Assembly: GCF_016127575.1 (NCBI RefSeq)
Contig: NZ_CP066018.1
Span: 2,850,001 to 2,882,000 of the forward strand
Direction: 5' to 3'
DNA from: Cupriavidus necator
GTDB taxonomy: Bacteria; Pseudomonadota; Gammaproteobacteria; Burkholderiales; Burkholderiaceae
DNA: 32,000 bases
Below, piece after piece: positions 9,105 through 26,516 of this stretch. Position 1 is the first letter of the stretch, and every line of letters starts with the position of its first letter. A model generated the notes under the pieces. That model had not been told where the DNA came from. It was given only the letters and a program-made list of their open reading frames with translations, and did not search any database. Position numbers and translations under genes: made by a program.

Positions 9105-9111
9105 GCGCGCC

Positions 9112-10323: not shown

Positions 10324-10766
10324 AAATAACCCTTTGTTTTGGGAGTGGTGCGTGTTCAGCAGTCTATTACAAGAGTGCTGTGCATGGACAAGCCAGATCC
10401 TGCGGGGCGCAAGCAAATATTTGGCTCCGCCGCGATCCGTGATCGGTCCGGGCGAGCCGTATTGGGGCTGTTTAACCGTGGCTAGTAGCGCCGGGGGCTC
10501 CGAGGGGGCGGCCATATCTCGGCTCGATCCGTTGCGGCCAGCTACTACGACAATAGGCGGCCCAGGACCTGCACCGCCGATCTCCAGGTATTGGTCAACA
10601 GGCCATTGAATTGTTGGCTCACCTTGGCCGGCTGCCAACAGCACCGGTGAGCGATGGCCGGTCGCTCGCTGGTGCAGGCGCGGCTGGGGTGGCGCGGCTG
10701 GGGTGGCGTTTGCGAAAAGATGAGCACTGCCGATAGTCAGGCAAACGCCTGCCCATTAGCCAATAC

Positions 10767-11085
10767 TGGCAAACGGTTCGTCAGCTGCGAGTTGAGTTGC
10801 GTGCTCATCTTCGGGTAGGCGTCGAATAGGGCGTGGGAGCGCTGGGCCTTCAATTCGCACTCGGCGCGGATCTGCTTAATCGTCTTGAAGCCCCATCTCA
10901 TAGCCTTGCACGCAGCTGCAGGTCCAGACCATGGTGTTACTCCGCACGGCCCGTTCCTCTGCCTGCCTGCGGGCTTCGAGGGCGGCTTCAGCAGCTTGCC
11001 CAGCCCGCGGGATGTCTGCCACGATCTCGGCCCTTGCCGGGCGGGCTCCGGCCAAGTCGGCGGCCAGCAATGGTGCGCGCCGCAT
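10767..11085 (-). pseudogene. frameshifted paralog of the secreted small protein 24708..25052
   Basis: Hand alignment to 24711-25052 gives about 87% identity over a counted 60-nt stretch. The reading frame is split between two track ORFs, with a 2-nt deletion near 10891-10897. There is also a 21-nt deletion near 10936-10941. Confidence 0.7.
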
Positions 11086-11086
11086 G

Positions 11087-11260
11087 TCAGGCTCCCCCCG
11101 GCGTAGATAACGGCCCGGCGCATGTCCCACAGGCCGTAGAGATAGACTCTGATCTCGCCCGCGGCTGGGCCGTGATCAGCCCTTCCAGCCGCTCCAAGGT
11201 CTCGTAGAAGGGGTTCTCCAGGTCGAGCACGCAGGATAGGTCGCTATCCTGACTCGGATT
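11087..11260 (-). pseudogene. truncated and frameshifted paralog of small protein 25054..25263
   Basis: SQDSDLSCVLDLENPFYETLERLEGLI matches SQDSTLSCVLDLEDPFRMTLERLEGLI. A 1-nt deletion near 11160-11170 shifts the frame. There is no start codon at the equivalent position. Homology ends around 11250-11266. Confidence 0.6.
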
Positions 11261-11280
11261 GAATGAAAAATGGCTTCCGC

Positions 11281-11486
11281 CCAGCCGATTCGAGTCACGC
11301 GCGCACGATTGGTCACTTCGGAAAGGGTGGCATGTCCCAAGGAGGGGCACTGCGGCGGAAAATCGGGGGGAAGAGAGGAGGAATCTACGCCCTGTGTGGC
11401 GGCCCATTGACATGGGCACGCCACACAAGTAGATCAGACGGCCTAGAGGCCAGCCTATGTGACTGGAGCTACTCCTAGTCGGCTGG
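11281..11486 (+). ncRNA. candidate structured ncRNA upstream of the RT (retron msr/msd-like), speculative
   Basis: Terminal complementarity ccagccga (11281-88) / tcggctgg (11479-86), plus gagt (11292-95) / actc (11471-74). These enclose a 15-bp hairpin at 11393-11427 (tgtgtggcggcccat-tgac-atgggc-a-cgccacaca). No convincing ORF is present. Confidence 0.25.
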
Positions 11487-11519
11487 CATTTTGCTAGTAT
11501 ATACGAGGCGATAGGTCGC

Positions 11520-12512
11520 GTGCATCGATGGGTAGCCCAGAAGGTAATTGTGAATAAAAAGCCACTTGAGACGCTTTTCGAGGCTATGTACCACAGCAAG
11601 CGTTCGTTCGACGATTTCGCGCGTGGTCCAGTGGCCCAGAAGTACGTCCGCCACCGCTTCTGCAAGCAGGGCAAGACGAGGGAGGTTCTCAGTCCCGACG
11701 ACAAGCTGCGTGCCTACCACGAGTTCCTGAGGCTCTTCCTGCTCGACTTTCTACCGCAGAATGAGGAAGTGGTTTTCTCGTATCGAAAAGGCGTGAGCGC
11801 CTACGACGCGGTGAGCAGGCATGCGCAAAGCAAGTTTTTCTTCGTTTGCGACATTGCCGATTTCTTCCCCAGCCTCAAACGCCATCGCATCCGACAAACC
11901 ATTCTTTCTGGGAAAGACTCATCTCCCGTCGCCGATTTAGATCAGTGGTTGGAGCGTATCCTTGACCTGGTGAGCGTCGACGATTGCTTGCCCATGGGCT
12001 TTTCCACGTCGCCGACAATAAGCAATGCCGCGCTATTGCCGTTCGACAATGCGGTACAGTGGTATTGCGCCTCGAGGGGGTTGATCTACACGCGTTACTC
12101 CGACGACATGGTGGTATCCGCCAAGGAGTTCGCCTCGCTAGATGGCATCGAGGAAACACTCGGGGCATTCTTCGTCGAATACATGGACGGCGACCTGGCC
12201 CTGCATCCTGGAAAATCCAAGCTGCTTCGAACTGGCAGCAAGATCAGGCTCCTGGGGATGGTACTGTTGCCCAATGGGACCATTTCGGTGGACGCGAGTA
12301 TCAAATCTGAGATCGAGGTACTAATCCACTTCTATATCAAGGACAGGGCGAAATTTGCGGATCGCGCAGATGGAGATGCGCAGAAGGTCGAGGCACGGTT
12401 GGCTGGCCTTCTGAATTACGCGAACACCGTGGACCAATCCTATCTGCAGAAGCTGCGCAAGAAGTTCGGCGCGGCTGTGGTGGATCTATTCCTGCACCGC
12501 TCCTTTGGCTAG
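11520..12512 (+). CDS. reverse transcriptase, retron/Abi-like (about 320-330 aa)
   Basis: RT motifs occur in order: KQGKTREVLSP, SYRKGVSAYDAVSRHA, FVCDIADFFPSL, LPMGFSTSPTISNAAL, YTRYSDDMVV (YSDD at 12096-12107), HPGKSKLL, IRLLGMVLLPNG. The track start is GTG 11520. An alternative is GTG 11550, preceded by AGAAGG. Confidence 0.9.
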   Translation: MHRWVAQKVIVNKKPLETLFEAMYHSKRSFDDFARGPVAQKYVRHRFCKQGKTREVLSPDDKLRAYHEFLRLFLLDFLPQNEEVVFSYRKGVSAYDAVSRHAQSKFFFVCDIADFFPSLKRHRIRQTILSGKDSSPVADLDQWLERILDLVSVDDCLPMGFSTSPTISNAALLPFDNAVQWYCASRGLIYTRYSDDMVVSAKEFASLDGIEETLGAFFVEYMDGDLALHPGKSKLLRTGSKIRLLGMVLLPNGTISVDASIKSEIEVLIHFYIKDRAKFADRADGDAQKVEARLAGLLNYANTVDQSYLQKLRKKFGAAVVDLFLHRSFG

Positions 12513-12515
12513 GGT

Positions 12516-13844
12516 ATGCACTTCTCAGTCGAGCTGGCGGAAATCCGCCCAATAAAAGCGCTCAGCTTCGAGATCGATCTTGCGCGAAACCAACTGCTCT
12601 GCATTGTGGGTAAGAATGGCTCGGGGAAAACTACGCTAGCCAAGGCGATTCTCAACTTCACGTTGGCCGACACCTTTACCCGCACATCATCGGATGGCAT
12701 TTTTCATCATGGCAGCAAGATTTGCTACCGTTTTGGCGCCCAAGAATTCCTGTTCTGGTATGACGACAACCTGCGCATGCTCAACTGTAAGGCGCCTATT
12801 CCAGAAGCGTTGAAGGCGCAGATATCGGTTGAGCTGCCGATGCCCCATGGGCATCGGTTCAATTTCTTCCGAGCGCTTAGCGAGTCCGATCACGAGATCC
12901 GGCGGGCGACCATCTTGGGGGATTACCGAAAACCCGAGGAGCTCATAGAGTTCTTGTCGCGCATCTATGGCGAACGACGATTCGACGATCTGATCGAGGT
13001 ACGATTGCGTACAGGATCGTGCTGCTGCATCACCCTTCCGGGCGGCCGCTATCTGCGTGAGGATTATTTCAGCTCTGGCGAATACTTCCTTATTAATCTT
13101 TATCGCAGGGTACGTAAGGGCCAACGGCTCGTCGTAATCGACGAGATCGACATTTCACTGGACGCCGCAGCCCAGGCTCGCCTCACCGCGGAGCTTCGGA
13201 CACTCTGCACTGAATACCACGTGAATATCGTCTTCACGAGCCATTCTCTAGCAATGATGCAGACGCTGCAGAGCAACGAACTGCTTTATATGGAACGGAA
13301 CGCCGAAGGTGCAACGCTCGTACCGGTATCTTTCAGCTATGTGAAGAGCTTGATGTTCGGGTTCACAGGCCGTGACAGATATATTCTCACCGAGGATGAG
13401 GTGCTCAAGGAGTTTCTGTCGTTTGTAATCCGTCACTACTGCCCACCTACCTTTTATAGCTATTATTTAATTGAAGTTGGTGGGGCGGGTCAGGTCGTCG
13501 ATCTCATGGCGCGTAATGATCGCGATGGATTCCTTGGCCCGACGGAAGACGTTATTTCCATCCTGGACGGCGACCAAAAACACGCCAAGCACGCCCAAGG
13601 GCCGAAGACCTACTGCATGCCGCTAGAGAGTGTCGAGAAGGCCTTCTGGGAAGAACATCAATGCCCAGATTTCCAGCCGCGCATTTCGGCGGAGCAGCAA
13701 GGCCCCAAGGCCCTATACAAGTACGTAACTCGCAACAAGATTTTCTCGCAGGAAGAGATCTTCAAGCTCCTTTGCGATCGCCATCATGAGGTCATTCAGG
13801 AGTTTGCCAGCACCTTGCAAGCCTTTCTTTGCCGGCCCACATGA
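12516..13844 (+). CDS. ABC-type ATPase fused to a TOPRIM-like (OLD / DUF4435-like) domain
   Basis: Walker A GKNGSGKT (12609-12632), signature-like FSSGE, Walker B LVVIDEIDISLD, and H-loop FTSHS. The C-terminal half has YILTEDEV...IEVGGAGQVV...ILDGDQ, resembling the TOPRIM Glu / GG / DxD pattern. ATG lies 3 nt after the RT stop. Confidence 0.8.
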   Translation: MHFSVELAEIRPIKALSFEIDLARNQLLCIVGKNGSGKTTLAKAILNFTLADTFTRTSSDGIFHHGSKICYRFGAQEFLFWYDDNLRMLNCKAPIPEALKAQISVELPMPHGHRFNFFRALSESDHEIRRATILGDYRKPEELIEFLSRIYGERRFDDLIEVRLRTGSCCCITLPGGRYLREDYFSSGEYFLINLYRRVRKGQRLVVIDEIDISLDAAAQARLTAELRTLCTEYHVNIVFTSHSLAMMQTLQSNELLYMERNAEGATLVPVSFSYVKSLMFGFTGRDRYILTEDEVLKEFLSFVIRHYCPPTFYSYYLIEVGGAGQVVDLMARNDRDGFLGPTEDVISILDGDQKHAKHAQGPKTYCMPLESVEKAFWEEHQCPDFQPRISAEQQGPKALYKYVTRNKIFSQEEIFKLLCDRHHEVIQEFASTLQAFLCRPT

Positions 13845-13886
13845 AGAGGGAGCGAGATGCGGCCGCGCGGCGGGAGTCCGCTGCGG

Positions 13887-14753
13887 TCAGTTGTCCGCAG
13901 TTGACTTTCTGGACGCTTGGTCGATATTTTCCTGAAAGCTCTCGAAGAATAGGTCAATCTCCTCATCCGTTGCCGGCCATATGTCAAAAGAAGGCTGGGG
14001 CAAGCCGGGCAGCCGCTTGTCGTCGGGTAGCCACGGCTGATCTAATTGGCCGAAGGAGAAACGTATTCGGAGGCGATTCAATGCGCCGCCGTTTGGGCGC
14101 ACGGGATCGAATGGCCGTATCCAGTCTGGCAGGCCGTCATAGTCTACAGCCGTGACTAGGCGGCCTTCCTGCTGGGCTTGATCTCTAAGTGTTCGCTCTT
14201 GCTCTTCGATTTCCGCTCGGTCTTCAAACACCTCGCATCCGAGCTCTTGAATCTTCGCAGTCCACTCCTGATACGTAACCGCGGCTTCAGACGCGCAGCG
14301 CGGAGGTCGCGGTCTCCCACCTTTCGAACCACCAGGCGGTAAAGGCAGCTTGCCATGGGCCAGATTCATCAATCCGCGTCGAAATAGCTTCAGTGCAGCT
14401 CGCTCGCTGTCGAGGCGGGCACCAAGGGCATCGGCGGAAGCAAGGTCCACGAGGCCTAAAGGCAGCAGCTCGTCTTCTGTAACGTAGCCAAGCTCGTGGG
14501 CAAGGGTAGCAACATCAAACAGCTTGGCTATGGACAAGGCCTGGCCCGACTTGCTGTAGGTCCCCTCCATGTGCCTGTAGCGCAGCCATTCCTGGCCAGT
14601 CTCCTGGTCAAACATGTCCCGCAACCCCAACCCGAACTTGGCCTCCAGTTGTGCTGGAGATAGCCCGGAACGTTTCTCGATCAGGCAAAGCAGGGCAACT
14701 GTGGCGCCCTTCATTCGCTGCTGACCGTACTTACCGTCTCGATGTCGCCCCAT
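13887..14753 (-). CDS. hypothetical protein, possible N-terminal HTH
   Basis: The internal ATG 14753 was chosen because the longer track ORF would overlap the divergent AlpA-like gene. LLCLIEKRSGLSPAQLEAKFGL resembles an HTH. It is divergent from the AlpA-like gene and convergent with the ATPase gene. Confidence 0.45.
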   Translation of the reverse strand: MGRHRDGKYGQQRMKGATVALLCLIEKRSGLSPAQLEAKFGLGLRDMFDQETGQEWLRYRHMEGTYSKSGQALSIAKLFDVATLAHELGYVTEDELLPLGLVDLASADALGARLDSERAALKLFRRGLMNLAHGKLPLPPGGSKGGRPRPPRCASEAAVTYQEWTAKIQELGCEVFEDRAEIEEQERTLRDQAQQEGRLVTAVDYDGLPDWIRPFDPVRPNGGALNRLRIRFSFGQLDQPWLPDDKRLPGLPQPSFDIWPATDEEIDLFFESFQENIDQASRKSTADN

Positions 14754-14837
14754 TCGAAACCTCGTGGAATTCCCTTTTGCTGGCAGATGTGACTCAAAGC
14801 ATCCTATCAGCACTTGGATAGCGAGGAAACATGACAG

Positions 14838-15230
14838 ATGAAGACCGCCGACAAATCGAGAGTGGATTTCCGCGTGGCGTTCGCAAACATGGATAGATGC
14901 GCGCTTTTGTCGCCCGAAGAACTTGCCGAATTGCTTGGCAAGAGCCGAAACGCTATCTACCACATGCTTCGGCGAGACGAGGATTCATTTCCTCAACCGG
15001 TCCTTCGCCAGAACCGATGCATTCGCTGGCGTGCCGGTGATGTCCGAGATTGGATAGACAGCCTGTCGAGCGCGAAGCCGCGTGAGATAGAGACTGCAAG
15101 GAGGCGGGGTCGGCCTCGCCAGGGCGATTTGCAGAGGTCCCCTTCTGATAGCGCACCTCTTGCTAACGATCATTCGACGGCGCTCGGACAAGCGCGTGCA
15201 CGCAAACTTGTGCGTTTTACCTTGGGGTGA
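14838..15230 (+). CDS. AlpA/MerR-type HTH DNA-binding protein (excisionase/regulator-like)
   Basis: LLSPEELAELLGKSRNAIYHMLRRDEDSFPQPVLRQNRCIRWRAGDVRDWI fits the AlpA-family pattern. GAGGAA lies upstream of ATG 14838. An alternative start is ATG 14889. Confidence 0.7.
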   Translation: MKTADKSRVDFRVAFANMDRCALLSPEELAELLGKSRNAIYHMLRRDEDSFPQPVLRQNRCIRWRAGDVRDWIDSLSSAKPREIETARRRGRPRQGDLQRSPSDSAPLANDHSTALGQARARKLVRFTLG

Positions 15231-15240
15231 TCTGGTCGCG
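15226..15240 (+). repeat. 15-bp motif GGTGATYTRGTCGCG, copy 1
   Basis: ggtgatctggtcgcg. It overlaps the TGA of the AlpA-like gene and lies 58 nt before the Rep-like start. Confidence 0.8.
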
Positions 15241-15297
15241 CCCCTCTTGTAGTGCTGATCCGAAGTCCTGCAGCCGCAACCAACCATAAGGGCCTTA

Positions 15298-16224
15298 ATG
15301 GCTGACGATCGTTTTCAGAACCACAGTGGCGGCGTAGTTCACGTTCACTACGATGTGCGCTACGGCTCCGTACCTGAGGCGTTGCTGGAAGACAGCCGCC
15401 TGGGGCTGGATACTAGGGCTGTTGCTGCCTGGCTGGCCGTGAAGCCTGCCGGCTGGCAGATTCTAGTCGGAGTTCTTCAGTCGCGACTAGAGCTTGGAAA
15501 GGACCGTTGGGGGCGGATCTCTCGCGAGCTGGAGGCGGCAGGATACTTAAGACGTCGAAGAGCTCATGGGCCGAGGGGTCAATGGCTCTGGAACATCGTC
15601 TTCAATCCCGTCCCAATGAGCCGACCTTCGACCATGGGCGGCTTTCCCGGAGATGGTGCTCACGGATCCGGGCAGCGCAACCCCGGTCGATCCGGAACTG
15701 GGACCTCCGACTCCGGCTTACCCGAGGCCGGTTCTGCCGGCAATATAGAAGTACCAGACAAGAAAAAACATCTAAGTAAAAAACAATCAACTACGACCCA
15801 GGCGCCCATCGCTGCCGCGGGCAGTTGCACTGCCTCCCGCTACCGGGAGCTGTTTTGGGCTCGAGCCGTTGAGCCTCACAAAGATGTAGTGGTTGCTTGT
15901 CTTGATCGAAGTGAAATGGACATGCCTACTGCGCAGAAGATTGTCGACGAGCTGGCAGGTTGCCTGGAGGCGGCCGCGTTGGGAAAGCGTGACGGGATCG
16001 CAAGTATCCAGGGTTGGGTTGCAGCGGTCGTCCGTCGCTGCAAGAAGGGTAGCTTCGTCATCGATCTGGGGCGGGTCGTGGCCCGTCGGCGTGATCAAGC
16101 GACGACGGATTCAGTTGTGCATGGATCATCGGTACACCAGTCCCATACCAGCCGGGAGAAGGGGCGAGAAAATCTGCGGACGCTCCTTCAGACACGGGAC
16201 GGCACTGGCAGACTAAATCCGTAG
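15298..16224 (+). CDS. winged-HTH (HTH_36-like) protein, possible replication initiator of the island
   Basis: The N-terminal LLEDSRLGLDTRAVAAWLAVKPAGWQILVGVLQSRLELGKDRWGRISRELEAAGYLRRRR resembles replication-initiator-type wHTH domains. A low-complexity linker follows. The gene lies directly upstream of the repeat-rich gene-free region. Confidence 0.5.
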   Translation: MADDRFQNHSGGVVHVHYDVRYGSVPEALLEDSRLGLDTRAVAAWLAVKPAGWQILVGVLQSRLELGKDRWGRISRELEAAGYLRRRRAHGPRGQWLWNIVFNPVPMSRPSTMGGFPGDGAHGSGQRNPGRSGTGTSDSGLPEAGSAGNIEVPDKKKHLSKKQSTTTQAPIAAAGSCTASRYRELFWARAVEPHKDVVVACLDRSEMDMPTAQKIVDELAGCLEAAALGKRDGIASIQGWVAAVVRRCKKGSFVIDLGRVVARRRDQATTDSVVHGSSVHQSHTSREKGRENLRTLLQTRDGTGRLNP

Positions 16225-16296
16225 CCAATTGCCGAGCTATAAGCGCCGGCGTGGATTGCCGGCTCATGCTAAGGGTGCCGGAACTAAGGCCGGCGA

Positions 16297-16311
16297 GGTG
16301 ATTTGGTCGCG
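16297..16311 (+). repeat. 15-bp motif GGTGATYTRGTCGCG, copy 2
   Basis: ggtgatttggtcgcg, 73 nt after the Rep-like stop. Confidence 0.8.
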
Positions 16312-16560
16312 CATCCACTCAAACCGGTAGCCAGCTGCACCAGTAGACGATTTGCTTATGCAGTCTCTCAAGAGCCAAGTCCATTTGAATCGGCAGTGTC
16401 GGATCGCCCCTTCGGGTCGCCGCTCTCCCTTGCGCCTAGCGGCGCGGGGACCCGTGCGCCTCGATCCGGGCGCGCGGCGCGCGCGAGACGTGGCCAGTCA
16501 TCGCCGGTTTGGCTTGCAGAACAGGGGCAGGTTCTCACCTCGGTTAGCCCTTGCCGTCGC

Positions 16561-16681
16561 GTGGCAGACCGCTGGCTGTTGTGGGCGGGCGGTGGGCTGT
16601 GTGTGGGCAACCCGGAAGGGTTGTTCATCCGCCGCGTCATGGTCGGTCCCTAAGGTGGTGCGGGTGGACCATGTCCACAGC
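16561..16681 (+). repeat. imperfect direct repeat of about 125 bp, copy A
   Basis: Aligns by hand with 16921-17049. The shared core is caaccc-gg(a/t)a-gggttg (hairpin 16608-16623), followed by gt(t/c)catc and a terminal catgtccac(a/g)gc. Confidence 0.7.
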
Positions 16682-16705
16682 TTGGCTGAAGCGGTTCGAA
16701 TGAGG

Positions 16706-16858
16706 GTGCAGGGCAAGCGCACTGAACATGCAGTGTACCTGCCGGTTTCATGCCCTGATATTGCAGTGATAGTGCAGTCAGGGTGCAGTGAGCGTGCACT
16801 GAGGGTGCAGCAAAAGTGCAGCAAGGTGCCGTGAGGGCGCAGTGATAGTGGCGGGAAA
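16706..16858 (+). repeat. array of 14 phased ~11-bp repeats (consensus about GTGCAGTGAGG), iteron- or centromere-like
   Basis: NTGC cores start at 16706, 16717, 16728, 16739, 16750, 16761, 16772, 16783, 16794, 16805, 16816, 16826, 16837 and 16848. Spacing is 11 bp except one 10-bp step. The central units are near-perfect: gtgcagtcagg, gtgcagtgagc, gtgcactgagg, gtgcagcaaaa. Confidence 0.85.
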
Positions 16859-16920
16859 CAGAGTCATCAGCAAGGTGTGAACGCCGGCGTTATTTCTTCT
16901 TGGTCAGCTCGTGCCTACGC

Positions 16921-17049
16921 ATGGCAAACCAGCAGCTGCGGTGGGCAAGTGGGGGCAAGCGGTGGGCGGCGCGTGGTCAACCCGGTAGGGTTGTCCATCG
17001 CCGTCCACGGTTTGTCCACACGCTGGCGCGTCAGCGCCATGTCCACGGC
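16921..17049 (+). repeat. imperfect direct repeat of about 125 bp, copy B
   Basis: Partner of 16561-16681, with hairpin caaccc-ggta-gggttg at 16978-16993. It contains ttgtccaca (17012-17020), one mismatch from the DnaA-box consensus TTATCCACA. Confidence 0.7.
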
Positions 17050-17158
17050 AGGCTCCCCCAAAAAAACCGTGCTCACCCTGGTGGTGCCCCGATTTATGCG
17101 TTCATGTATGCCGCATACCCATCGCGCGGATGCACGTTACCAAGTAGAGGTCTCGTGG

Positions 17159-17173
17159 GGTGATTTAGTCGCG
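17159..17173 (+). repeat. 15-bp motif GGTGATYTRGTCGCG, copy 3
   Basis: ggtgatttagtcgcg. A degenerate fourth copy, gggatgctggtcgcg, lies at 17185-17199. The site is about 250 nt upstream of the relaxase start. Confidence 0.8.
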
Positions 17174-17289
17174 GTGGCTGGCCGGGGATGCTGGTCGCGG
17201 AGAAAGACGGCATCGGTCCGCCGGCGGAAGTCGTTGGCGCGCGCGGAGGCGAAGGAGGTTGCATGCTGATGGTGGTTGTCGGGAGGGTC

Positions 17290-17358
17290 CTTGGGAGGGT
17301 GCCCCTCCCAAGCGCGATTCCTCGTTTGAATGGCTTGCTTCGCACTCCATTCAAACGA
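17290..17358 (+). promoter_or_regulatory. candidate oriT region: two strong inverted repeats just upstream of the relaxase gene
   Basis: IR-1 is cttgggaggg (17290-99) / ccctcccaag (17303-12). IR-2 is tcgtttgaatgg (17322-33) / ccattcaaacga (17347-58) with a 13-nt loop. MOBQ oriTs usually lie next to the relaxase gene and carry an IR beside nic. Confidence 0.35.
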
Positions 17359-17422
17359 CCGCGGTCAGGGCCATGCCCCGACACCCCGATACATGTCTTC
17401 CTCCCACGCGCTCTGACAGAAC

Positions 17423-18898
17423 ATGGCATCCCCTCACGTATCCTTTAAGCGTGGCAAAGTTGGCAACGGTGCCGCGCACGCCGCCTACGTGAGGGGTGAG
17501 GGAAAGTATGCCGACCGCGACGATGTGCGGGCAGTGGTCGATGGCAACCTGCCTGCCTGGGCGTGCGGCGACGCATATAAGTTCTTCGCGGCGGCGGACG
17601 CCAATGAGCGCAAGAACGGGCGCGCATATCTCGAGGTCGAGGCCGCCATCCCGCGCGAAGCCGCGGATCCGATTGCCTGGGCGCGCGAGTTCACCCAATC
17701 GCTGCTGGGTGACCGCTTTGCCTACCGGCTCGCCGTGCATGACCGGCAGGCCGGCGACGGCGGGCGGAATGTCCACCTGCACCTGATGTTTTCGGACCGC
17801 CCGACCGATGGCGAGCACTTCGACGCGAAGCGTTTTTTCAAACGGAACGGCTCCATGAAGGACCGCAGCTGGAACAAGCGTGACATGGTGCTCGAGGTGC
17901 GGTGGCTATTTGCCAAGCACGTTCGTGAAGTTGTGCCTGGCTGGGAGCCGCCCGCGCCGGCGAAGCCGGAACCGAAGATTGGTCCCGCCTTGCCCAAGGC
18001 CGGCACGCTGTACCACCAGGTCCGCACGGCGCGCCTGGCGGAGGTGGAGCAGATCCGCATTGAGCGTCGGCAGGAGGCCGAGCGCGAGAAGATCCGAGAC
18101 GACCTCGCCGAAGCCACCAAGGATCTGTGCATCCCGTGGGAAGTGGATTTGCCCCAGCTCGAACGTCGGCTCAATGCCCTGCTGACGATGCCGCTGCAGC
18201 TTGGCCAGCAGGCCGAGCTGCAGGAGCTGCGCCGCAAGGCTGAGCTGGAGCGTCGTCGCAGGGAGGCGCGGGCGCGCCAGAAGGCCCGGGAATTGGAAAA
18301 TGCGGCCCAGCACGGCTGCGTCAGGGACCTGCTGAAGATCGCGCTGTACGCCCGCTATTGCGAGCTGGAGGGGGATTCGGCGGGTGGAAAGCGACTACGT
18401 GCTGAAGTCCAGCGTGAGATGCGCAACACCCCGGCGACTCGGAAGCGCGCGGACTACACGCAGGCGCTGGTCGTTCGCCTGGCAGCAGAGGAATTGCTGC
18501 GCGACGGCTTGATCGGCGAGGGCGTGGCTCACGCCCTTGGTGTCAACGCGAAGCTGGCAAAGTCTCTGGGCCCCAACGGGCTGGCCAAGGAAACCAGCGA
18601 GCACCTTATGGCGTCCATCAAGGCAGCGGAAGTCTCCAATGCTGCCGTGGGCAAGCAGGTCAGGGAGGTGAATCTGGCGCTGAACGCAGCTGCCGCGACA
18701 ATCATGCAGACCATGCCTGGCGACTACAGTGCTGCTGCCAATGCGGCCGGAATCGTTGCGAGTGTGGCAACACAGTTCCGATCGTTCTCTGCCGTCCCGG
18801 CATCAAAGGCTGACGGGCAGCCGGTGGTGAAGGCCTCTGCTGCCGACAAAGGCGCTGGAGCGGCCACCGTGCCGAAACTGCGTGCGTCCAAGCCGTGA
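17423..18898 (+). CDS. mobA: MOBQ-family relaxase (MobA/MobL-like) with coiled-coil C-terminal region
   Basis: The N-terminus AAYVRGEGKYADRDD parallels RSF1010 MobA ADYIQREGKYA (catalytic Tyr context). The histidine triad region is LAVHDRQAGDGGRNVHLHLMFSDR. No primase domain is apparent. Confidence 0.9.
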   Translation: MASPHVSFKRGKVGNGAAHAAYVRGEGKYADRDDVRAVVDGNLPAWACGDAYKFFAAADANERKNGRAYLEVEAAIPREAADPIAWAREFTQSLLGDRFAYRLAVHDRQAGDGGRNVHLHLMFSDRPTDGEHFDAKRFFKRNGSMKDRSWNKRDMVLEVRWLFAKHVREVVPGWEPPAPAKPEPKIGPALPKAGTLYHQVRTARLAEVEQIRIERRQEAEREKIRDDLAEATKDLCIPWEVDLPQLERRLNALLTMPLQLGQQAELQELRRKAELERRRREARARQKARELENAAQHGCVRDLLKIALYARYCELEGDSAGGKRLRAEVQREMRNTPATRKRADYTQALVVRLAAEELLRDGLIGEGVAHALGVNAKLAKSLGPNGLAKETSEHLMASIKAAEVSNAAVGKQVREVNLALNAAAATIMQTMPGDYSAAANAAGIVASVATQFRSFSAVPASKADGQPVVKASAADKGAGAATVPKLRASKP

Positions 18899-19048
18899 TA
18901 CCCGCATGAGCAAATGCAAGTGGCGAAAGCGGAGTATCGGCCCGGGGGAGTGCGACCTCACGTCGATTTCGCGTCGGGCCACTGCGAGTCGGTCATTGCG
19001 ACGCTCCCACGGGCCATTCGTCAAGTTCAAACTACTTCCTACTAATCT

Positions 19049-19756
19049 ATGCAAGTAAGCAGCCCGGTAAAGGCTCTACGCCAAGCCGAAGTGACACCCC
19101 CGCCAGCGCTGGCTGCGGCGATGCCCACGCACCTGTTCGAACGCTTGCGCATGAACCCTATACCGGTCTTGGTCATGGACAGCCCTTCAGCCCACACTCT
19201 GTGGGCCGGGTTCTGCGCTGCGAGCGAATATACCGAGCAAGGCGAAATCGCAATTGGCCGATGCCTTGTGGAGCCAACTGTGCGACAACCACGGCGTTCA
19301 GCGATCCTCAGCACTTATCTCCATGAGGCCGCACACCGTCTTTTGCCTGACCAGCACCATCACAACGCCGCCTTTGGTGCCATGATGCTCGTGTTATATC
19401 TCCGTGCCGGCTCCATTGATGGCGCGGATCTGTGGCAGTCTTCTGGCCTATATGACTACCAGGACGAAGCTGAAAACCTGCCGCAAGGCTTCAATTGGGC
19501 GTGGCGGACGGCAAACGAGCTGGCGACAACAGAACTACCTGCGGAAGAGTGCGCGGAAATCATCGCGCAGCGATATGGCAAATGGCAGGAGTGGTTGGCC
19601 GGCGCGGCGGAACGGAAGCAGGCCCGTTTGGCAAAGGCGCAGGCCAATGCGCAGTACATCGAGAGCCTTAAAGAAACCAGATTCTTGTTGGCCGGCTTGG
19701 GCTTTATGGCTGGGATGTTGGCAGGGGCAATGATCGCCCTGCAGTTTGTCGCATGA
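19049..19756 (+). CDS. HExxH-motif protein with C-terminal TM anchor (putative minimal Zn-metallopeptidase, SprT-like pattern)
   Basis: ILSTYLHEAAHRLLPDQHHHNAAF (HExxH plus downstream His). The C-terminal hydrophobic helix is FLLAGLGFMAGMLAGAMIALQFV. The start codon is uncertain because no clear RBS is present. Confidence 0.45.
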   Translation: MQVSSPVKALRQAEVTPPPALAAAMPTHLFERLRMNPIPVLVMDSPSAHTLWAGFCAASEYTEQGEIAIGRCLVEPTVRQPRRSAILSTYLHEAAHRLLPDQHHHNAAFGAMMLVLYLRAGSIDGADLWQSSGLYDYQDEAENLPQGFNWAWRTANELATTELPAEECAEIIAQRYGKWQEWLAGAAERKQARLAKAQANAQYIESLKETRFLLAGLGFMAGMLAGAMIALQFVA

Positions 19757-19852
19757 AATTGCTTGCGTGGTCTTTTGCATTTCGGGAAGAATTGAGATGC
19801 GTCGATTTCGGGCGAGATCGACTCACCCTATCAAAGTTCAACTTTCGCATGT

Positions 19853-20509
19853 ATGGCCATGTACGAGTCAGTTGGGGCGGTCGATTTTCTTGGCACCGCG
19901 TTGGGTGTTGTCGCACTAAGCGGCACTATTGCCGATGTTTCAGTGGAGACGTCGCATCGAACCCGCGCCACGCGCAATCTGAATCAGCAACTGCGTGACG
20001 TTCAGATAGATACCTATCACACATATTCAGTATGGCTGCGCCTGCGCGACGGTAAGTCTGCAGTACTCAGGCTTGTCAATCCAGGCTTCCCGATTCGTGT
20101 CGGCAATATGGTGACAGCGTACTACGCTGGTCAGGACGGCCAAGATCTGGCAAGTCTGGAACTCGTGGGCTTTGAAGATCGGACGATGGGTAAGGTGTTT
20201 GACATGGCTGGACGAGCCCGACTGCCCCAATCTTCCGGATCGTACATGTTGCGCTTTGCGGTCGTTTCGGCTTTTGGTGCGATCGCGCTGCACTGGCTTG
20301 CGGTTCATGTATTCGTGTTTGTGCTAAGCGCGCCGTTGGCACTGTTTTTAATGAATGGCTGGGTCGACTGGTGGGTCTGTGCAATCCCTGCTGGCATCTG
20401 GTACATGAGCAAGACCGTGCTCCGGGACAAGCGGGTTGCCGAGGGCCGGCGGCGTCTTTTCGACCTGATACGTGGTCAACGCACTTCGCTGGCTGCGCCG
20501 GAGTTCTGA
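19853..20509 (+). CDS. hypothetical multi-pass membrane protein
   Basis: One N-terminal TM and about 3 C-terminal TM helices flank a soluble segment of about 100 aa. No motif was recognised. Confidence 0.45.
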   Translation: MAMYESVGAVDFLGTALGVVALSGTIADVSVETSHRTRATRNLNQQLRDVQIDTYHTYSVWLRLRDGKSAVLRLVNPGFPIRVGNMVTAYYAGQDGQDLASLELVGFEDRTMGKVFDMAGRARLPQSSGSYMLRFAVVSAFGAIALHWLAVHVFVFVLSAPLALFLMNGWVDWWVCAIPAGIWYMSKTVLRDKRVAEGRRRLFDLIRGQRTSLAAPEF

Positions 20510-20541
20510 GGTTGGTAGACTAGGAGGAAAGGAGTACCAGC

Positions 20542-20733
20542 ATGGCAACGAAACTCACCCAATACATCATGAGCGAGCGGTTCCAAGAGGACGTTGGCCG
20601 CGGCATTGAGAAGGCGATTGCGCAGGCCAAGGCTGCTGGATTGCCTCCCGCCGGTGACCAGGTCCTTGCCACGCCGAAGAAGCGGCGCGCTACCATTGTC
20701 TATCTTCCTCCGAGGCCCTCGAGGAAGGAGTAG
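20542..20733 (+). CDS. hypothetical small protein (63 aa)
   Basis: A strong RBS, AGGAGGAAAGGAG, ends 7 nt before the ATG. The C-terminus is basic. No motif was recognised. Confidence 0.45.
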   Translation: MATKLTQYIMSERFQEDVGRGIEKAIAQAKAAGLPPAGDQVLATPKKRRATIVYLPPRPSRKE

Positions 20734-20806
20734 AGGGGGCCTGCCGCAGACTCGAACTGACGGGGTGCGATTCCCGGGTGAGTGCTGCATGGAGCGCATA
20801 GCGAAC

Positions 20807-20825
20807 CTTTCACCCAATCTGGAAT
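20807..20825 (+). repeat. 19-bp perfect direct repeat, copy 1
   Basis: ctttcacccaatctggaat, identical to 21166-21184. Confidence 0.9.
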
Positions 20826-21222
20826 GGCAGTTCACCCAGCTTTGAGGAAGGCATTAGCCGTGGAAAACGGAAGGGATGTCGAGGACGAACTGCTGCTCCG
20901 CTGCGCTGCAACCGGACGCGGACAGGTGACCGTGGCACGCGACCAACGGGAAGCGAACATTTTTCGCCTCGCCGCGGTGGTTATCCAATCTCGCTTTCCC
21001 CTTGAAGCTGAAGGCATCGTTCACGCCAGTGAGCGCTACTTTGCGCGGCATCCCGAGGATATGGTTCCCTCTCCCGAGGTGATGCGGAAGTGCTGGGTTT
21101 CGAGCATGCCTCGGCTGCAGGATATGCTCAGCCGTAAGCTTGGTTGGAGCTGGAATGTTGGAGAGCTTTCACCCAATCTGGAATCGTCGCGGCGGGGGTC
21201 GGCGGGTTCACCCCCCGCCTGA
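20824..21222 (+). CDS. hypothetical protein (132 aa)
   Basis: The ATG 20824 (MAVHPALRK...) within track ORF 20782..21222 was chosen. Its 3' end overlaps the convergent HNH gene by 15 nt. No motif was recognised. Confidence 0.4.
   Translation: MAVHPALRKALAVENGRDVEDELLLRCAATGRGQVTVARDQREANIFRLAAVVIQSRFPLEAEGIVHASERYFARHPEDMVPSPEVMRKCWVSSMPRLQDMLSRKLGWSWNVGELSPNLESSRRGSAGSPPA
21166..21184 (+). repeat. 19-bp perfect direct repeat, copy 2
   Basis: ctttcacccaatctggaat, identical to 20807-20825. Confidence 0.9.
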
Positions 21223-21573
21223 ACGCAGCAGCCTTTCGAAGACCCAGGGGTGGTGCCACCGTCTCCGGCGCATGAGCCGCTCTACATATTCCTTGTGATG
21301 GGCGGCGTCCCGCGCTGCTTTACCTTGGTGTCGGCGGGCATTGCAAAGCCGGCAGGCGGCCACGATGTTGCTTTGGGAGTCCCCACCGCCATCGACTCGG
21401 GCATGTAGATGCTCGGCCGTGCATTGAAGGTGTCGAGCCTGCCGACTGGAGAGATGGAAGGTCGCTGCGAACGCTTCCATGGATTGCTCCCACATGGGGC
21501 AGCAGCAATAGAAGCAACGGCCGGATTGACGATGGAAGGCGCGGGCGCGCAGACGCGCGAGAGTCGAGGGCAT
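21208..21573 (-). CDS. small HNH endonuclease
   Basis: GRCFYCCCPM...CTAEHLHARVDGGGDSQSNIVAACRLCNARRH fits the CxxC...H...N...CxxC HNH zinc-finger pattern. Confidence 0.75.
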   Translation of the reverse strand: MPSTLARLRARAFHRQSGRCFYCCCPMWEQSMEAFAATFHLSSRQARHLQCTAEHLHARVDGGGDSQSNIVAACRLCNARRHQGKAARDAAHHKEYVERLMRRRRWHHPWVFERLLRSGGG

Positions 21574-22100
21574 GAGCGATCCTGTGTACAGGAAGATTTC
21601 GGATACTTCGAAACCCGCTCGCCCTTAACAAGGCATACACGGGAACCAGCCAAGTAGCTCGTGCTGGCACCTCTTCAGCTCCTAGCGAAGACTGACGGGG
21701 AAGAGTGTAGCCTCACATTTTCCTGAGACACAAGGGGAAGGCGCGCCGGCCTTACAAAATCGCAACAATGCGCCCAGTGCGACCGCGCCGCCGCAAACTT
21801 TAATGGCTCTGGGAGGGACGTTGACGCGTCGACAAATGCCGCTCTGTCCAGTCTAAGGCGTCTGAACGCAGGGAAGTCTGATCGCACCCTTGGAACACTA
21901 GGTGGAAACGACGCTAAGTGGGTCGCCACAAGCCAACGAGGAGCTGACCAGTGGAGGTCCCTTGCCGGCCAGAAAGCGACGGCCGGGCCCTCTGACTGAA
22001 TGGCCGAAGCTCTGACACAGCGGACGGGTTCACTATGTGGAGCTTGCCGGACTATCGATAGCGGGTTTCTGTTTCGATTGCTCCAGTCCCGCCCTTCAAG

Positions 22101-22718
22101 TCAACCCAACCTCACCAGATTCAGCGCGGCCAGCGGTCCTCCAGGAAACTGATGCTGTCTTCCGCCCCCGTCGAGCGAACCGAGATCGATGCCGAAGAAC
22201 CCGAGGCGATCGATCAACTTGGCCACCTCGGCTTTGGCGTTCGCATCGTCACCCGACATGAACATCACGCGGCGGCCACCTTCAGCTTGCGGATCGCCGG
22301 CGACCAGCGCGGGCTGCAGGTGATTGAACGCCTTCACGACACGCGCGCCGGGCACCAGGTCTGCAAACACTGCGCTCGACGAGCGGCCATGCAGGTCCGC
22401 GGGGCGAAACAGCGGCGCCTCGATCGGGTTGTTGGCATCGATGACAATGCGCCCGCCAAAGTCCGGCAACCCGGCCAGCGCCTGCGGCAGCTTCGACCAG
22501 TTGACGGCCACCAGCACGATGTCTTGCGCCGCGGCTTGCTCGCGCGTGCCCGGGCGGATCGAAGGCCCGATGGCTTGCACGGCATCCTGCAGCGTTTCAG
22601 GCCCACGGCTGTTGGCCAGCACCGCCTGGATGCCGTGGCGTGCCAGCGCCGTGGCAAACGCCGTGCCGATTGCGCCCGCGCCGATGATGCCAATGGTCTT
22701 TCCGTAGCTTGCTTGCAT
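22101..22718 (-). CDS. NADP-dependent oxidoreductase, F420-reductase (NADP oxidoreductase coenzyme F420-dependent)-like Rossmann protein
   Basis: KTIGIIGAGAIGTAFATALARHG dinucleotide-binding fold; about 205 aa; host-like high GC. Confidence 0.8.
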   Translation of the reverse strand: MQASYGKTIGIIGAGAIGTAFATALARHGIQAVLANSRGPETLQDAVQAIGPSIRPGTREQAAAQDIVLVAVNWSKLPQALAGLPDFGGRIVIDANNPIEAPLFRPADLHGRSSSAVFADLVPGARVVKAFNHLQPALVAGDPQAEGGRRVMFMSGDDANAKAEVAKLIDRLGFFGIDLGSLDGGGRQHQFPGGPLAALNLVRLG

Positions 22719-22732
22719 GACGGTCTCCCGGT

Positions 22733-23485
22733 TCAGGCGGTGAAGCCGCCATCGGCAACGATCTCGGCACCGGTGACGAAGGCTGCGTCCGGACCGGCGA
22801 GGAACGCCACCACGCCGGCAATCTCATGCGGCTGCCCGTATCGTCCCAGGGCAATGCCGGGTCCCACGATCTCGCTGACCGGGCCGCCGGCGGGATTCAT
22901 ATCGGTGTCGGTCGGGCCGGGGTGGACGGTGTTGACCGTGATGCCTTTCGGCCCCAGGTCGCGCACCAGGCTGCGATTGAAGCCTGCGATCGCGCCCTTG
23001 GTCAGCGTGTAGAGCGATGCCGTTGGAAACGCCGCGTAGCGCGCCATCGATGAACCGATGTGAATCACCCGCCCGCCCGTCTTCATATGGCGCACCGCTT
23101 CCTGCGTGGCCACGAATACGCCGGTCACGTTCACCGCAATCATGCGCTCGTAGGTGTCGAACGCGATGTCCTCGATGGCACCGCCCAAGCTCAGGCCGGC
23201 GTTGTTGACGAGGATGTCGAGGCCGCCGAAGGCGTCGACCGTCGCTGCCACGGCCCGGCGCACCGCGGCCGCATCGCCGGCGTCCGCGGCGAGCGCGATG
23301 GCGCGGCCGCCGGCTGCTTCGATCTCGCGCACTACCGTGGCGGCCTTGTCCGCTGAGGCACTGTAGGTCAGCGCTACGGCCGCGCCGTCGGCGGCCAGGC
23401 GGCGGGCGATGGCGGCGCCGATGGAGCGCGATCCGCCGGTAACGAGGGCGATCTTGCCGGCCAGGGGAAGGGTCTGTTGAGTCAT
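22733..23485 (-). CDS. short-chain dehydrogenase/reductase (SDR)
   Basis: LAGKIALVTGGSRSIGAAIARRLA (TGxxxxxG), NNAG, and the YTLTKGAI catalytic YxxxK. Confidence 0.9.
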   Translation of the reverse strand: MTQQTLPLAGKIALVTGGSRSIGAAIARRLAADGAAVALTYSASADKAATVVREIEAAGGRAIALAADAGDAAAVRRAVAATVDAFGGLDILVNNAGLSLGGAIEDIAFDTYERMIAVNVTGVFVATQEAVRHMKTGGRVIHIGSSMARYAAFPTASLYTLTKGAIAGFNRSLVRDLGPKGITVNTVHPGPTDTDMNPAGGPVSEIVGPGIALGRYGQPHEIAGVVAFLAGPDAAFVTGAEIVADGGFTA

Positions 23486-23601
23486 TTCTTTCTCCGTTGG
23501 GGTGAATCACAAGGTGTGAACGGAGTATGGGTGTTCGATTGCGCGATGATTAGTAATGAATGACTGGAATCATCTTCAAGCAATCGTGTAAGCTGAGCCG
23601 G

Positions 23602-24534: not shown

Positions 24535-24707
24535 CGTTGTCTACCGAGGCACGCCGTTTCGACGACCGCTCTGGCCCAAACTTGAGTCACTCGCCAAGCT
24601 TTAACGAAGGGCAGGAGTGGGTCGGCAGGAGACAGTGAGCAGCTGGTGCAGGGCAGTCCAACGAATTCGTGCTTCATGGCGAGCGACATGAAGCCTGCCA
24701 TAGACCG

Positions 24708-25052
24708 TTATTGGCAACGGTTGGTCAGCTGCGCGTTGAGCTGTGTGCTCATCTGCGGGTAGGCGTTGAATAGGGCCTGCGAGCGTTCGGTTCTGACCCC
24801 GCTCTCGGCTCGTATCTGCCTGACGGTCTTGAAGCTCCAGATATCCTGACCATTTACACAGGTGCACGTCCACACCAGGGTGTTGTCGATGGCCTCCTCG
24901 TTGGCCTTCCACACAGCCCGTTCCTCTACCTGCCGCTGGGCTTCAAGCGCTGCCTCGGCGGCTTGGCCAGCCCGCAGGATATCCGCCACAGTCTGGGCCC
25001 CTGCTGGGCAAGCTCCGGTCAGGGCAGCGGTAAGCAATAGCGCGCGCCGCAT
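24708..25052 (-). CDS. small secreted protein of unknown function (integrase-proximal island module)
   Basis: Signal peptide MRRALLLTAALTGACPAGAQ. This is the intact counterpart of pseudogene 10767-11085. Confidence 0.6.
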   Translation of the reverse strand: MRRALLLTAALTGACPAGAQTVADILRAGQAAEAALEAQRQVEERAVWKANEEAIDNTLVWTCTCVNGQDIWSFKTVRQIRAESGVRTERSQALFNAYPQMSTQLNAQLTNRCQ

Positions 25053-25053
25053 G

Positions 25054-25263: not shown

Positions 25264-25373
25264 AGCAAGACCTCTATAGGTTTGTTGTGGTCAGCGGATG
25301 CGGCGGGGTGCAACCACCGCATTCGTCCCCGTTCGTAATTGCGGAACTCGATTAAGGGATCTATAAGGCGCTT

Positions 25374-26420: not shown

Positions 26421-26516
26421 TCCTGCTCCAGACAAGTGATTGGTCGTGTCCGGGCCGATTGTCTGACTGCGCCACTTTTGCGCCAAAAGGGCATTCCGCG
26501 AGGTTTTGCGGCAATG

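Follow-up and report, generated by a model that had tools for sequence, protein, structure and literature searches.

A lineage-specific 11-bp repeat array, possibly a protein-docking site, between two DnaA-box-like modules of a Cupriavidus necator integrative mobilizable element

Fourteen direct repeats of 11 bp lie head to tail in a non-coding part of a Cupriavidus necator genomic island, and they raise the question of what such an array serves. A sequence-only reading of the locus had leaned towards a plasmid-type centromere and had also named a Rep-associated iteron field. We followed up these proposals in the whole stretch of 32,000 nucleotides (hereafter the window), in the rest of the genome and in related islands and plasmids. 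The island and the genes next to the array are as follows.

7694..26618, no strand assigned: tRNA-Val island of ~19 kb with 40-bp identical direct repeats at both ends
7694-7733 and 26579-26618: the island direct repeats, the second copy lying inside tRNA-Val
25374-26486, minus strand: tyrosine integrase, at the tRNA end of the island
14838..15230, plus strand: AlpA/excisionase-type HTH_17 protein
15298..16224, plus strand: P0001, 308 aa, winged helix at the N terminus and helical domain at the C terminus
17423..18898, plus strand: MOBQ (MobA/MobL) relaxase

The cargo consists of defence genes (GmrSD-like, HEPN, a retron RT with an ATPase, and HNH), and the gap between the P0001 and relaxase genes is a 1.2-kb non-coding stretch that contains the array. 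The element is most likely a tRNA-Val integrative mobilizable element, with the array in its replication and transfer control region.

The array was recovered with exactly the unit starts and steps given by the sequence-only reading.

16706..16858, plus strand: 11-bp direct-repeat array of 14 units, each a GTGCAGTGA core plus two variable bases

The units, arranged with one repeat per helical turn, start at 16706, 16717, 16728, 16739, 16750, 16761, 16772, 16783, 16794, 16805, 16816, 16826, 16837 and 16848, that is, with ten steps of 11 bp followed by steps of 10, 11 and 11 bp. The 'NTGC' core ascribed to every unit proved slightly generous: TGC occupies unit positions 2-4 in 11 of the 14 units, whereas two units have GCGC and the last has GTGG. 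A per-unit alignment agrees with the description of a near-identical centre and degenerate edges, the overall regularity being ~70%. Tandem Repeats Finder, which had been suggested as a check of the period, called period 11 at 16756-16850 (8.7 copies, 70% matches, score 50) and period 22 at the array as well, and the lag-11 autocorrelation of 0.69 at 16726 was the top value among lags 6-30 in the window. On the best strict 11-bp lattice, TGC was present at 10 of the 14 array sites, compared with a mean of 2.8 and a maximum of 5 in 500 dinucleotide-preserving shuffles and with only 3-4 sites elsewhere in the window.

Within the unit, positions 1-9 form a 9-bp core (0.7-2.0 bits each), in which G3 (14/14 units), C4 (13/14) and T2 (12/14) are the most constant bases, and positions 10 and 11 are nearly free (0.42 and 0.44 bits). 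Mismatches are unevenly spread over the 11 unit positions (p ~0.004 by an approximate chi-square on counts), and only one 1-bp indel is present in the 153 bp despite ~28% substitutions, the phase being otherwise kept. The top strand is G-rich (57 G, 31 C). A 9-bp site followed by a 2-bp spacer in each unit would place all 14 sites on one face of the helix. For oriC, Rozgaja et al. (2011) reportedly described 9-mer sites with a 2-bp separation.

A tandem-array search of the entire 7.4-Mb genome, whose three replicons measure 4.05, 2.91 and 0.45 Mb, gave this as the sole Tandem Repeats Finder array of period 11 with at least 4 copies; the other arrays called at periods 10-12 or 21-23 with at least 3.5 copies are mostly of period 12 or 21, and two adjacent units occur nowhere in the genome but in the array. 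The gene-free setting also held. A coding function was rejected because the ORFs overlapping the array gave no match in a Pfam search, and a structured RNA because an Rfam search of 10500-22500 returned zero matches. An unwinding element seemed unlikely as well, since the array scored -1.516 kcal/mol per bp, where the region averages -1.556, and was judged no easier to melt than the DNA around it. A Chi, uptake-sequence or KOPS-like signal was rejected: the 7- and 8-mers of the unit occur at 0.5-1.45x the maximal-order Markov expectation in the host genome, so they are not over-represented, and their counts are equal on both strands as assembled. A promoter-like site was looked for at the array, and none was found.

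The array is flanked on both sides by copies of a module, which is referred to as module A, and the non-coding stretch contains several further elements.

16352..16361, plus strand: single TTGCTTATGC motif, matching the unit of a second 11-bp array in Comamonas plasmid pZM22-1 (see below)
16406..16500, plus strand: conserved ~90-bp non-coding element
16561..16700, plus strand: module A1, the upstream and more degenerate copy, with palindrome CAACCC-GGAA-GGGTTG
16682..16898, plus strand: 217-bp junction of the module duplication, as defined by plasmid alignment, with the array inside
16915..17050, plus strand: module A2, the well-conserved copy, with palindrome CAACCC-GGTA-GGGTTG
17159..17173, plus strand: 15-bp motif GGTGATTTAGTCGCG, with more copies at 15226 and 16297
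17283..17360, plus strand: probable oriT, consisting of inverted repeat CTTGGGAGGG/CCCTCCCAAG, then GCGCGATTCC, then a second inverted repeat

The ~140-bp module has a short palindrome between two helically phased rows of DnaA-box-like 9-mers. In A2, and likewise in the small MOBQ plasmids described below, the left row comprises four boxes G(T/G)GGGC with steps of 10, 11 and 11 bp, and the right row, after the palindrome, comprises three boxes GTCCA(C/T) with steps of 10 and 11 bp; the left boxes read as GCCCAC on the opposite strand, so that the two rows are opposed. The 9-mer TTGTCCACA at 17012 agrees with the DnaA box TTATCCACA at 8/9 positions, ATGTCCACA and TTGCCCACA in the flanking modules agree at 7/9, and each module (~150 bp) contains 1-6 DnaA-box-like 9-mers, compared with ~0.2 in shuffles. 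Boxes in related modules on IMG/VR contigs read TTATCCATG and ATATCCACG. To judge from these matches, the module boxes may be recognised by DnaA. The array units, compared by eye with TTGTCCACA and TTATCCACA, agree at 4-5/9 positions. Array unit 1 follows the last box of A1 (GTCCAC at 16673) at a distance of exactly 33 bp (3 x 11 bp), which puts the array in helical register with this box. As single-stranded DNA, A2 is predicted to form a long hairpin (z = -3.5, 0/200 shuffles as good). The least stable 40 bp of the intergenic spacer start at 16350 and include the TTGCTTATGC motif, and the three copies of the 15-bp motif sit at gene boundaries. Searching 400 genomes of the order for the pattern of the module palindrome yielded mostly 3-mismatch coding noise; one IMG/VR match to the palindrome was also coding.

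Upstream of this stretch, P0001 is assigned no family by a Pfam search. Its AlphaFold model (pLDDT 77.6) has a winged helix at the N terminus, and its best PDB folds were the Geobacillus primosome protein DnaB (DnaD-type), RctB domain 1 and RepA_N Rep-DNA complexes, all with Foldseek E-values of at least 0.01; weak profile matches were obtained to the STY4528 island replication protein and to the phrog_270 replication initiator. Some 73 homologues were found, mostly unnamed, the named ones being from Burkholderia and Paraburkholderia, and the family was essentially absent among the 72,556 plasmids searched. On these fold and profile matches we regard P0001, with moderate confidence, as a probable island replication initiator.

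The proposal of a Rep-associated iteron field stands in part. The array has an initiator-like winged-helix gene on its upstream side and is flanked by DnaA-box-like modules, but the repeats do not go with the initiator family: the 11-bp array was absent from 9/9 loci (7 different contigs) with P0001 homologues of 38-59% identity, and thus shows no co-variation with the family. The module or its box vocabulary sits downstream of most P0001-family genes, and in other islands of the family other repeats fill the place after the module (5 x CACATGTGACCCA in loci L145 and L192), as would be the case if every initiator had sites of its own. Classical Rep iterons measure 17-22 bp at a spacing of ~22 bp, and do not form 14 contiguous 11-mers.

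The closest relatives of the relaxase (69-82% identity) are encoded on 5.2-6.2-kb circular MOBQ plasmids from several sequencing runs, and the region upstream of mobA in three such plasmids is collinear with window positions 16400-17420. The order in the plasmids is the ~90-bp element, one module A, the 15-bp motif GGTGATYNRGTCGCG, an inverted repeat with GCGCGATTCC (likely oriT) and mobA; one copy of the 15-bp motif is kept between module A and oriT in each of them, and the oriT candidate is collinear and conserved. The ~90-bp element, which recurs upstream of module A in these plasmids, was also found downstream of two homologues of the P0001 gene and in unannotated Burkholderia/Paraburkholderia plasmid spacers. 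In a different C. necator assembly, the relaxase is 95% identical and the upstream region is unlike that of the window. Window segments 16400-16681 (75%) and 16899-17049 (87%) both align to the single plasmid module, indicating that module A was tandemly duplicated to give A1 and A2. At 128 plasmid-invariant columns, A2 differs at 10 and A1 is off at 32 (22 differences and 10 gap columns); A2 is the conserved copy, whereas A1 has drifted or taken on another role. The 217-bp junction between them, including the array, has no counterpart in 3/3 of the collinear plasmids. Conservation of the array in homologous islands, on which the sequence-only reading had placed weight, was thus not observed, either in the 9/9 P0001-homologue loci or in the 3/3 small plasmids that have the closest relaxase and a collinear upstream region. 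These absences indicate that the array is dispensable for replication or transfer in the relatives.

Among the matches listed, the Comamonas resistens plasmid pZM22-1 (NZ_CP125948.1) is the only other replicon with the array unit beside the module, and its region 3200-3940 resembles the window. The array there comprises 13.7 copies of GTGCAGTG(A/G)G(G/A), is 95% regular and contains block duplications, and the consensus unit GTGCAGTGAGG is identical between the window and pZM22-1. It is preceded in phase by 5 x CTGCTTTAGAG, and ~7 x TTGCTTATGTT/TTGCTGATCTT follow 200 bp further up, so that three arrays of unlike unit sequence all have an 11-bp period. The arrays carry no annotation; they adjoin a second copy of module A, which has diverged (82% to the one in the backbone), and lie between fragments of another copy. 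The features of pZM22-1 are ordered as TTGCTTATG motifs, module copy, GTGCAGTG array and module piece, and the window has the same order in the same strand orientation, with one TTGCTTATGC at 16352, A1, the array and A2; the DNA between the ordered features does not align, the module core apart. An identical unit and order amid DNA that cannot be aligned argues for constraint on the unit.

The backbone of pZM22-1 encodes a ColE2-like Rep, KfrA and ParA, plus a small RHH protein. No protein shared with the island was detected by tblastn (annotated CDS and stop-to-stop ORFs of at least 40 aa), a profile comparison with Rep and KfrA found nothing, and the AlpA-like protein was not found in the plasmid. 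The presence of unit and module without a shared protein argues against a simple cognate pairing of the array with the winged-helix protein or the AlpA-like protein. The sister plasmids p2_SCLZS63 and ZDHYF418 unnamed3 encode near-identical proteins (ParA 98%, small protein 92%, KfrA 97%) and have no array, indicating that the sites of those proteins lie elsewhere. The module is located ~200 bp downstream of the ColE2-like Rep gene (PF03090 + PriCT) in ZDHYF418 unnamed3 and between rep and kfrA in two sister plasmids of it; it also occurs on small viral-collection contigs, beside 114-bp tandem repeats. Two functions were rejected for module A itself: oriT, because in the Comamonas plasmids a classical MOBQ oriT is located at another place, between mobA and traD, and a ColE2-type origin, because a ColE2-like ATAATCAGATATCAGCCC repeat, which we take to resemble the ColE2 ori, is found at the rep 3' end instead.

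A wider search returned 11-bp arrays with a GTGCAGT core at more than 120 loci in many phyla (genome contigs) and at 40 loci (metagenome contigs), the core being imposed by the search pattern itself. Their neighbourhoods share no common protein and no module, and several resemble chromosomal or eukaryote-like minisatellites. A universal GTGCAGT-binding factor was rejected on this account, and these heterogeneous arrays, having no common context, were treated as unrelated.

Taken with the comparisons above, the most likely reading is a lineage-specific array for protein docking rather than a plasmid-type centromere. The uniqueness of the array in the genome, its phase and its 9+2 structure favour docking, whereas the drift of the adjacent A1 and the ~70% regularity with degenerate edges, as is typical of a decaying repeat, speak against it. 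We tentatively propose, at somewhat less than an even chance, an accessory, origin-associated (iteron-like) docking array for an oligomerising replication or copy-control protein. After excision of the island, a DNA-binding protein would nucleate at or beside the module and spread cooperatively along the array, one protomer per turn, forming a filament between the two DnaA-box modules; such a filament could tune the firing of the origin or the copy number, or act in incompatibility or in keeping the circular form. Since close relatives do without the array, its role would be that of an add-on regulator and not of the core origin. No single binder is favoured strongly. The island winged-helix protein P0001 is the first candidate, although an unlikely one; host DnaA or another host factor, for which the units would be weak phased sites, is rather less likely, and a factor supplied in trans is more doubtful again.

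The account that competes best with a docking array is that the array is a decaying by-product of the module duplication, in which an 11-bp seed at the junction expanded by slippage or unequal exchange and now drifts along with the redundant A1 without a sequence-specific function. We consider this somewhat unlikely, but several observations fit it well. None of the three collinear plasmids contains an equivalent of the junction, A1 is significantly more diverged than A2 at the conserved columns, and the array is regular in the centre and degenerate at the edges; the nearly perfect array of pZM22-1, with its block duplications, displays active expansion dynamics, and the array-less Comamonas modules end in a single GGGTAGTGAGGGT, a possible seed that agrees with the unit at 9/11 positions and aligns with the start of the window array. 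Neutral drift is nevertheless hard to square with the same consensus unit and four-feature order in two otherwise unalignable replicons, and the position-dependent 9+2 conservation, the single indel amid so many substitutions and the three independent 11-bp periods of pZM22-1 also argue against it.

A broader version of the docking proposal was considered for the module as such. The module occurs in small MOBQ plasmids, ColE2-like Comamonas plasmids and integrative islands alike, and its position beside unrelated initiators is most simply read as recognition by a host factor, most probably DnaA. It could thus be a portable origin accessory that is independent of any one initiator, the 11-bp arrays found at its edge in two of these replicons being an evolvable 'spreading track'; this generalisation is speculative and, in our view, quite unlikely. 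Once nucleated on the module, a host factor such as DnaA or a partner would polymerise with one protomer per turn, and tunable titration or recruitment of the host initiation machinery would lead to copy control, incompatibility or interference with the replication of the host.

A centromere or nucleoid-tethering site in the style of ParR-parC or StbA-stbDR, as preferred by the sequence-only reading, is improbable in our judgement. A small protein would coat the phased repeats and keep the excised island or plasmid in both daughters; a further role could be to balance stability with transfer at the neighbouring oriT. R1 parC is indeed built of 11-bp iterons (PMC2241845), and the stbDRs of R388 share the 9+2 geometry and lie next to oriT (PMC3098194), the end of the window array being ~430 bp from the candidate oriT. 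Partition-type genes (ParA, the small RHH protein and KfrA) are present on pZM22-1, and KfrA of RA3 binds 9-bp direct repeats; in addition, 4-5 x GTGCAGTACTA follow an Arthrobacter rep-parA-RHH locus, showing that arrays of this kind can be centromere-like in other settings. However, scans of the island ORFs with Pfam and NCBIfam detected no ParA, ParM or ParR, in agreement with the earlier statement that the island has no partition ATPase or actin gene; KfrA was not found on the island, and no island ORF was named StbA/TraK-like by Pfam, NCBIfam or PHROGs. The array is a single contiguous block without a promoter match and not two clusters around a promoter, the sister plasmids with near-identical ParA, small protein and KfrA do without it, and the genome has no further array of the unit that a helper system could share.

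Two further explanations are highly unlikely. One is that the array provides recombination-directionality or transcription-control sites for the AlpA-like protein, whose gene lies 1.5 kb upstream, in the manner of Xis, Cox or Apl, proteins of this type (P2 Cox, 186 Apl) being known to bind helically phased direct repeats; but directionality factors act beside att and ~9 kb separates the array from each att repeat, the 15-bp motif, with its three copies at gene boundaries, would make a better operator, the array has no promoter-like site, and pZM22-1 lacks such a protein. The other, equally remote, is that the array is architectural DNA, a superhelically curved spacer that sets module-module or origin-oriT geometry without a dedicated binder, as its strict period near the helical repeat, the flexible TG/CA steps in every unit and the strong curvature reported for R1 parC (PMC2241845) would allow, but the conserved 9-mer exceeds what curvature needs and the relatives manage with a single module and without a spacer.

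Should the array be a working docking track, the integrative mobilizable element would have added repeat-based control to a borrowed plasmid origin and oriT region, and the array would offer a simple cis element for manipulating the copy number or stability of the excised island in Cupriavidus and other Burkholderiales. If it is only a decaying duplication junction, it would be an ordinary non-coding tandem repeat, and the interest would lie mainly in the module, which, occurring beside three unrelated initiator types, is a testable candidate for a host-DnaA-dependent portable origin accessory.

How the array relates to known systems can be stated for each of them. Like iteron-type plasmid and satellite origins, it has an initiator-like gene directly upstream and DnaA-box-like clusters adjacent, and its direct repeats occupy non-coding DNA that separates the rep-like gene from the module that comes next on the island. 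Unlike those origins, it has 14 contiguous 11-bp units as against 17-22-bp iterons at ~22 bp, it does not go with the initiator family (0/9 loci), it does not appear easily melted, and its unit also occurs beside the unrelated ColE2-like Rep of pZM22-1. The ori of SaPIs has 6-12 short iterons just downstream of rep (PMC9371898).

In R1 parC, 11-bp direct repeats are each bound by one ParR dimer, and two sets of five repeats flank the par promoter directly upstream of parM-parR (PMC2241845); the window has, by contrast, one 14-unit block, no par genes and no promoter match. The array thus lacks defining features of parC/ParR, and it also fails to travel with an initiator as classical iterons do. 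The stbDRs of R388 (IncW) are 9-bp direct repeats with 2-bp spacing next to oriT and the relaxase operon, and StbA confers stability without a dedicated ATPase (PMC3098194). The window array resembles them in its 9-bp core and two free positions near oriT, and both units contain TGCA (TTGCATCAT and GTGCAGTGA). In R388, however, two sets of five repeats are placed around a promoter (PMC3098194), the units agree at only 4/9 positions, and no StbA/TraK-like gene was recognised on the island. With pZM22-1 the window shares the array unit, the feature order and the strand orientation, and differs in that the plasmid array is nearly perfect (95%) and has two further 11-bp arrays ahead of it.

In E. 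coli oriC, arrays of low-affinity DnaA sites are nucleated from high-affinity boxes (Rozgaja et al. 2011, reviewed in PMC4285127). Similarly, a strong box in the window is followed by same-face sites that could guide stepwise oligomerisation; the GTCCAC box at 16673 and the array share one register, and the flanking module is itself formed by two opposed phased rows of DnaA-box-like 9-mers. The window differs from oriC in that its units agree with the DnaA box at only 4-5/9 positions (by eye), in that it belongs to a mobile island and not to a chromosome origin, and in that it has 14 sites as against 3-5 per array in oriC. By analogy, the closest counterparts in setting would be the iteron origins of plasmids and satellites (PMC9371898), and the closest in mode of action would be the StbA-stbDR system of R388 and the low-affinity DnaA arrays of oriC (PMC3098194, PMC4285127).

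The transfer module of the island (window 16400-18898) consists of a 90-bp element, an origin-type module (module A), a candidate oriT and the MOBQ relaxase gene mobA, and was compared with the small MOBQ plasmids L233, L236 and L240, which carry the closest relaxases. It resembles a mobilizable plasmid of a 5-6 kb lineage that has become integrated; plasmids of this lineage also encode a ParE/PaaA2 toxin-antitoxin and an HTH_17 protein, and several runs yielded a 5755-bp contig in different rotations. The features compared are as follows.

Window 16406-16500: non-coding element of ~90 bp
Window 16561-16700 and 16915-17050; L233:2876-3021, L240:2904-3046 and L236:2737-2880: module A, ~140 bp
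Window 15226-15240, 16297-16311 and 17159-17173: 15-bp motif GGTGATYTRGTCGCG, three copies, at gene boundaries
L233:3085, L236:2883 and L240:3052: small-plasmid copies of the 15-bp motif
Window 17283-17360: candidate MOBQ oriT

The candidate oriT comprises an inverted repeat (CTTGGGAGGG/CCCTCCCAAG), followed by GCGCGATTCC and then by a second inverted repeat of 17 nt. The candidate oriT of the small plasmids is collinear with that of the window, and its first stem displays compensating changes (CATAGGGAGGG/CCCTCCCTATG); in the Comamonas plasmids, the oriT reads GTTTCTCC-TTT-AGGAGAAAC, then AACTAAGCGCGCC. One copy of the 15-bp motif is kept between module A and the oriT in all three small plasmids, and the motif is likely an operator or a relaxosome accessory site. 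The upstream region of the island is variable within C. necator, because the relaxase gene on another chromosome of this species, L231 (95% identity over 73% of the length of the relaxase), is preceded by different DNA: no module or array region was found upstream of it, and a 93-bp repeat (1.9 copies, L231:4384-4564) and different genes are present instead.

In module A, the palindrome CAACCC-GGTA-GGGTTG has a row of DnaA-box-like 9-mers on each side (4 x G(T/G)GGGC and 3 x GTCCA(C/T)); the rows are helically phased and opposed to each other. The module adjoins three unrelated initiator types, namely the winged-helix protein of the islands, the ColE2-like Rep of the Comamonas plasmids and the HTH_36 or RepL-like proteins of the small MOBQ plasmids. 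The winged-helix protein of the island, P0001 (encoded at window 15298-16224), defines an unnamed protein family with about 73 members, each roughly 300 aa long. The winged helix of these proteins is highly conserved, and a disordered linker connects it to a C-terminal domain that is helical. The family genes reside in small integrase-bearing islands, adjoining a short AlpA-like gene, and the family was essentially absent from the plasmids of PLSDB. Of all 40-bp stretches of the region, the richest in A+T (15743-15782) falls within the linker-coding part of the P0001 gene, and distant homologues contain intragenic 15-bp repeats (GCCATCCATGGCAGA, 2.5-3 copies).

Outside the island, the ~90-bp element precedes module A in the small MOBQ plasmids and follows the genes of two P0001 homologues, and unannotated spacers 80-90% identical to it were found in 14 plasmids of Burkholderia, Paraburkholderia and Caballeronia; in the two plasmids inspected, its neighbours are antirestriction, DUF3717 and XRE genes. 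Its predicted fold was no better than those of shuffled sequences. The element could serve in single-strand initiation or as a leading-region element.

Arrays of 11-bp or similarly phased units were also found in other organisms.

L117:3100-4570 (Arthrobacter terrae contig): 661-aa ORF, ParA gene and gene for a 134-aa protein, then 11-bp repeats
L081:~5000-5100 and L025:~1450-1550 (two betaproteobacterial MAGs): degenerate 11-bp arrays
L041, L049, L050, L059, L064 and L069 (Levilactobacillus), L092 and L103 (Limosilactobacillus): phased GCAGT runs

In the Arthrobacter contig, 4-5 copies of GTGCAGTACTA lie about 400 bp downstream of the three genes; the 661-aa ORF is taken, from its position, as a putative Rep, and the C-terminus of the 134-aa protein is RHH-like. 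This array is probably a type Ib centromere built on 11-bp repeats whose core is that of the island array. The arrays of the two MAGs have about 8 or more units, with the core TGCAGTC and spacers that vary. Each array is 0.5-1 kb away from a Phage_int_SAM_2/Integrase_1-type integrase gene, and its units may be arm-type or directionality-factor sites. The conserved run of the lactobacilli, with 4-5 phased GCAGT units (GCAGTTTTGAT GCAGTTTGAGT GCAGTTTTTGT GCAGTCGGACT), is flanked in six Levilactobacillus species by a tRNA gene on one side and, on the other, by the start of a divergent gene that is conserved; the divergent gene, with a similar array, is common to two Limosilactobacillus species, and the run looks like a regulatory array.

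Other repeats were found in related replicons.

L145:7230-7470 and L192:2440-2650 (related islands): (GAGT)CACATGTGACCCA repeats, five or six copies
L226:4017-4274, L227:3381-3859 and L229:4512-4991 (IMG/VR contigs of 5-6 kb): palindrome TGTCCACACC-N5-GGTGTGGGCA
L142:2740-2860 (Comamonas plasmids): direct repeat GCTGTCCCATCCCCATAATCAGATATCAGCCC, at and just past the 3' end of the PF03090 rep gene

The (GAGT)CACATGTGACCCA copies, spaced about 42-75 bp apart and some of them inverted, occupy the interval that separates the DnaA-box-like module from the next gene, and look like iterons. On the three IMG/VR contigs, which lack homologues of the island or pZM22-1 proteins, the palindrome is accompanied by canonical-looking DnaA boxes and adjoined by a 114-bp repeat, present 2-4 times in tandem. 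The GCTGTCCCATCCCCATAATCAGATATCAGCCC repeat is likely the primary origin of the Comamonas plasmids, because it resembles the ColE2 origin core (ATCAGATAACAGC).
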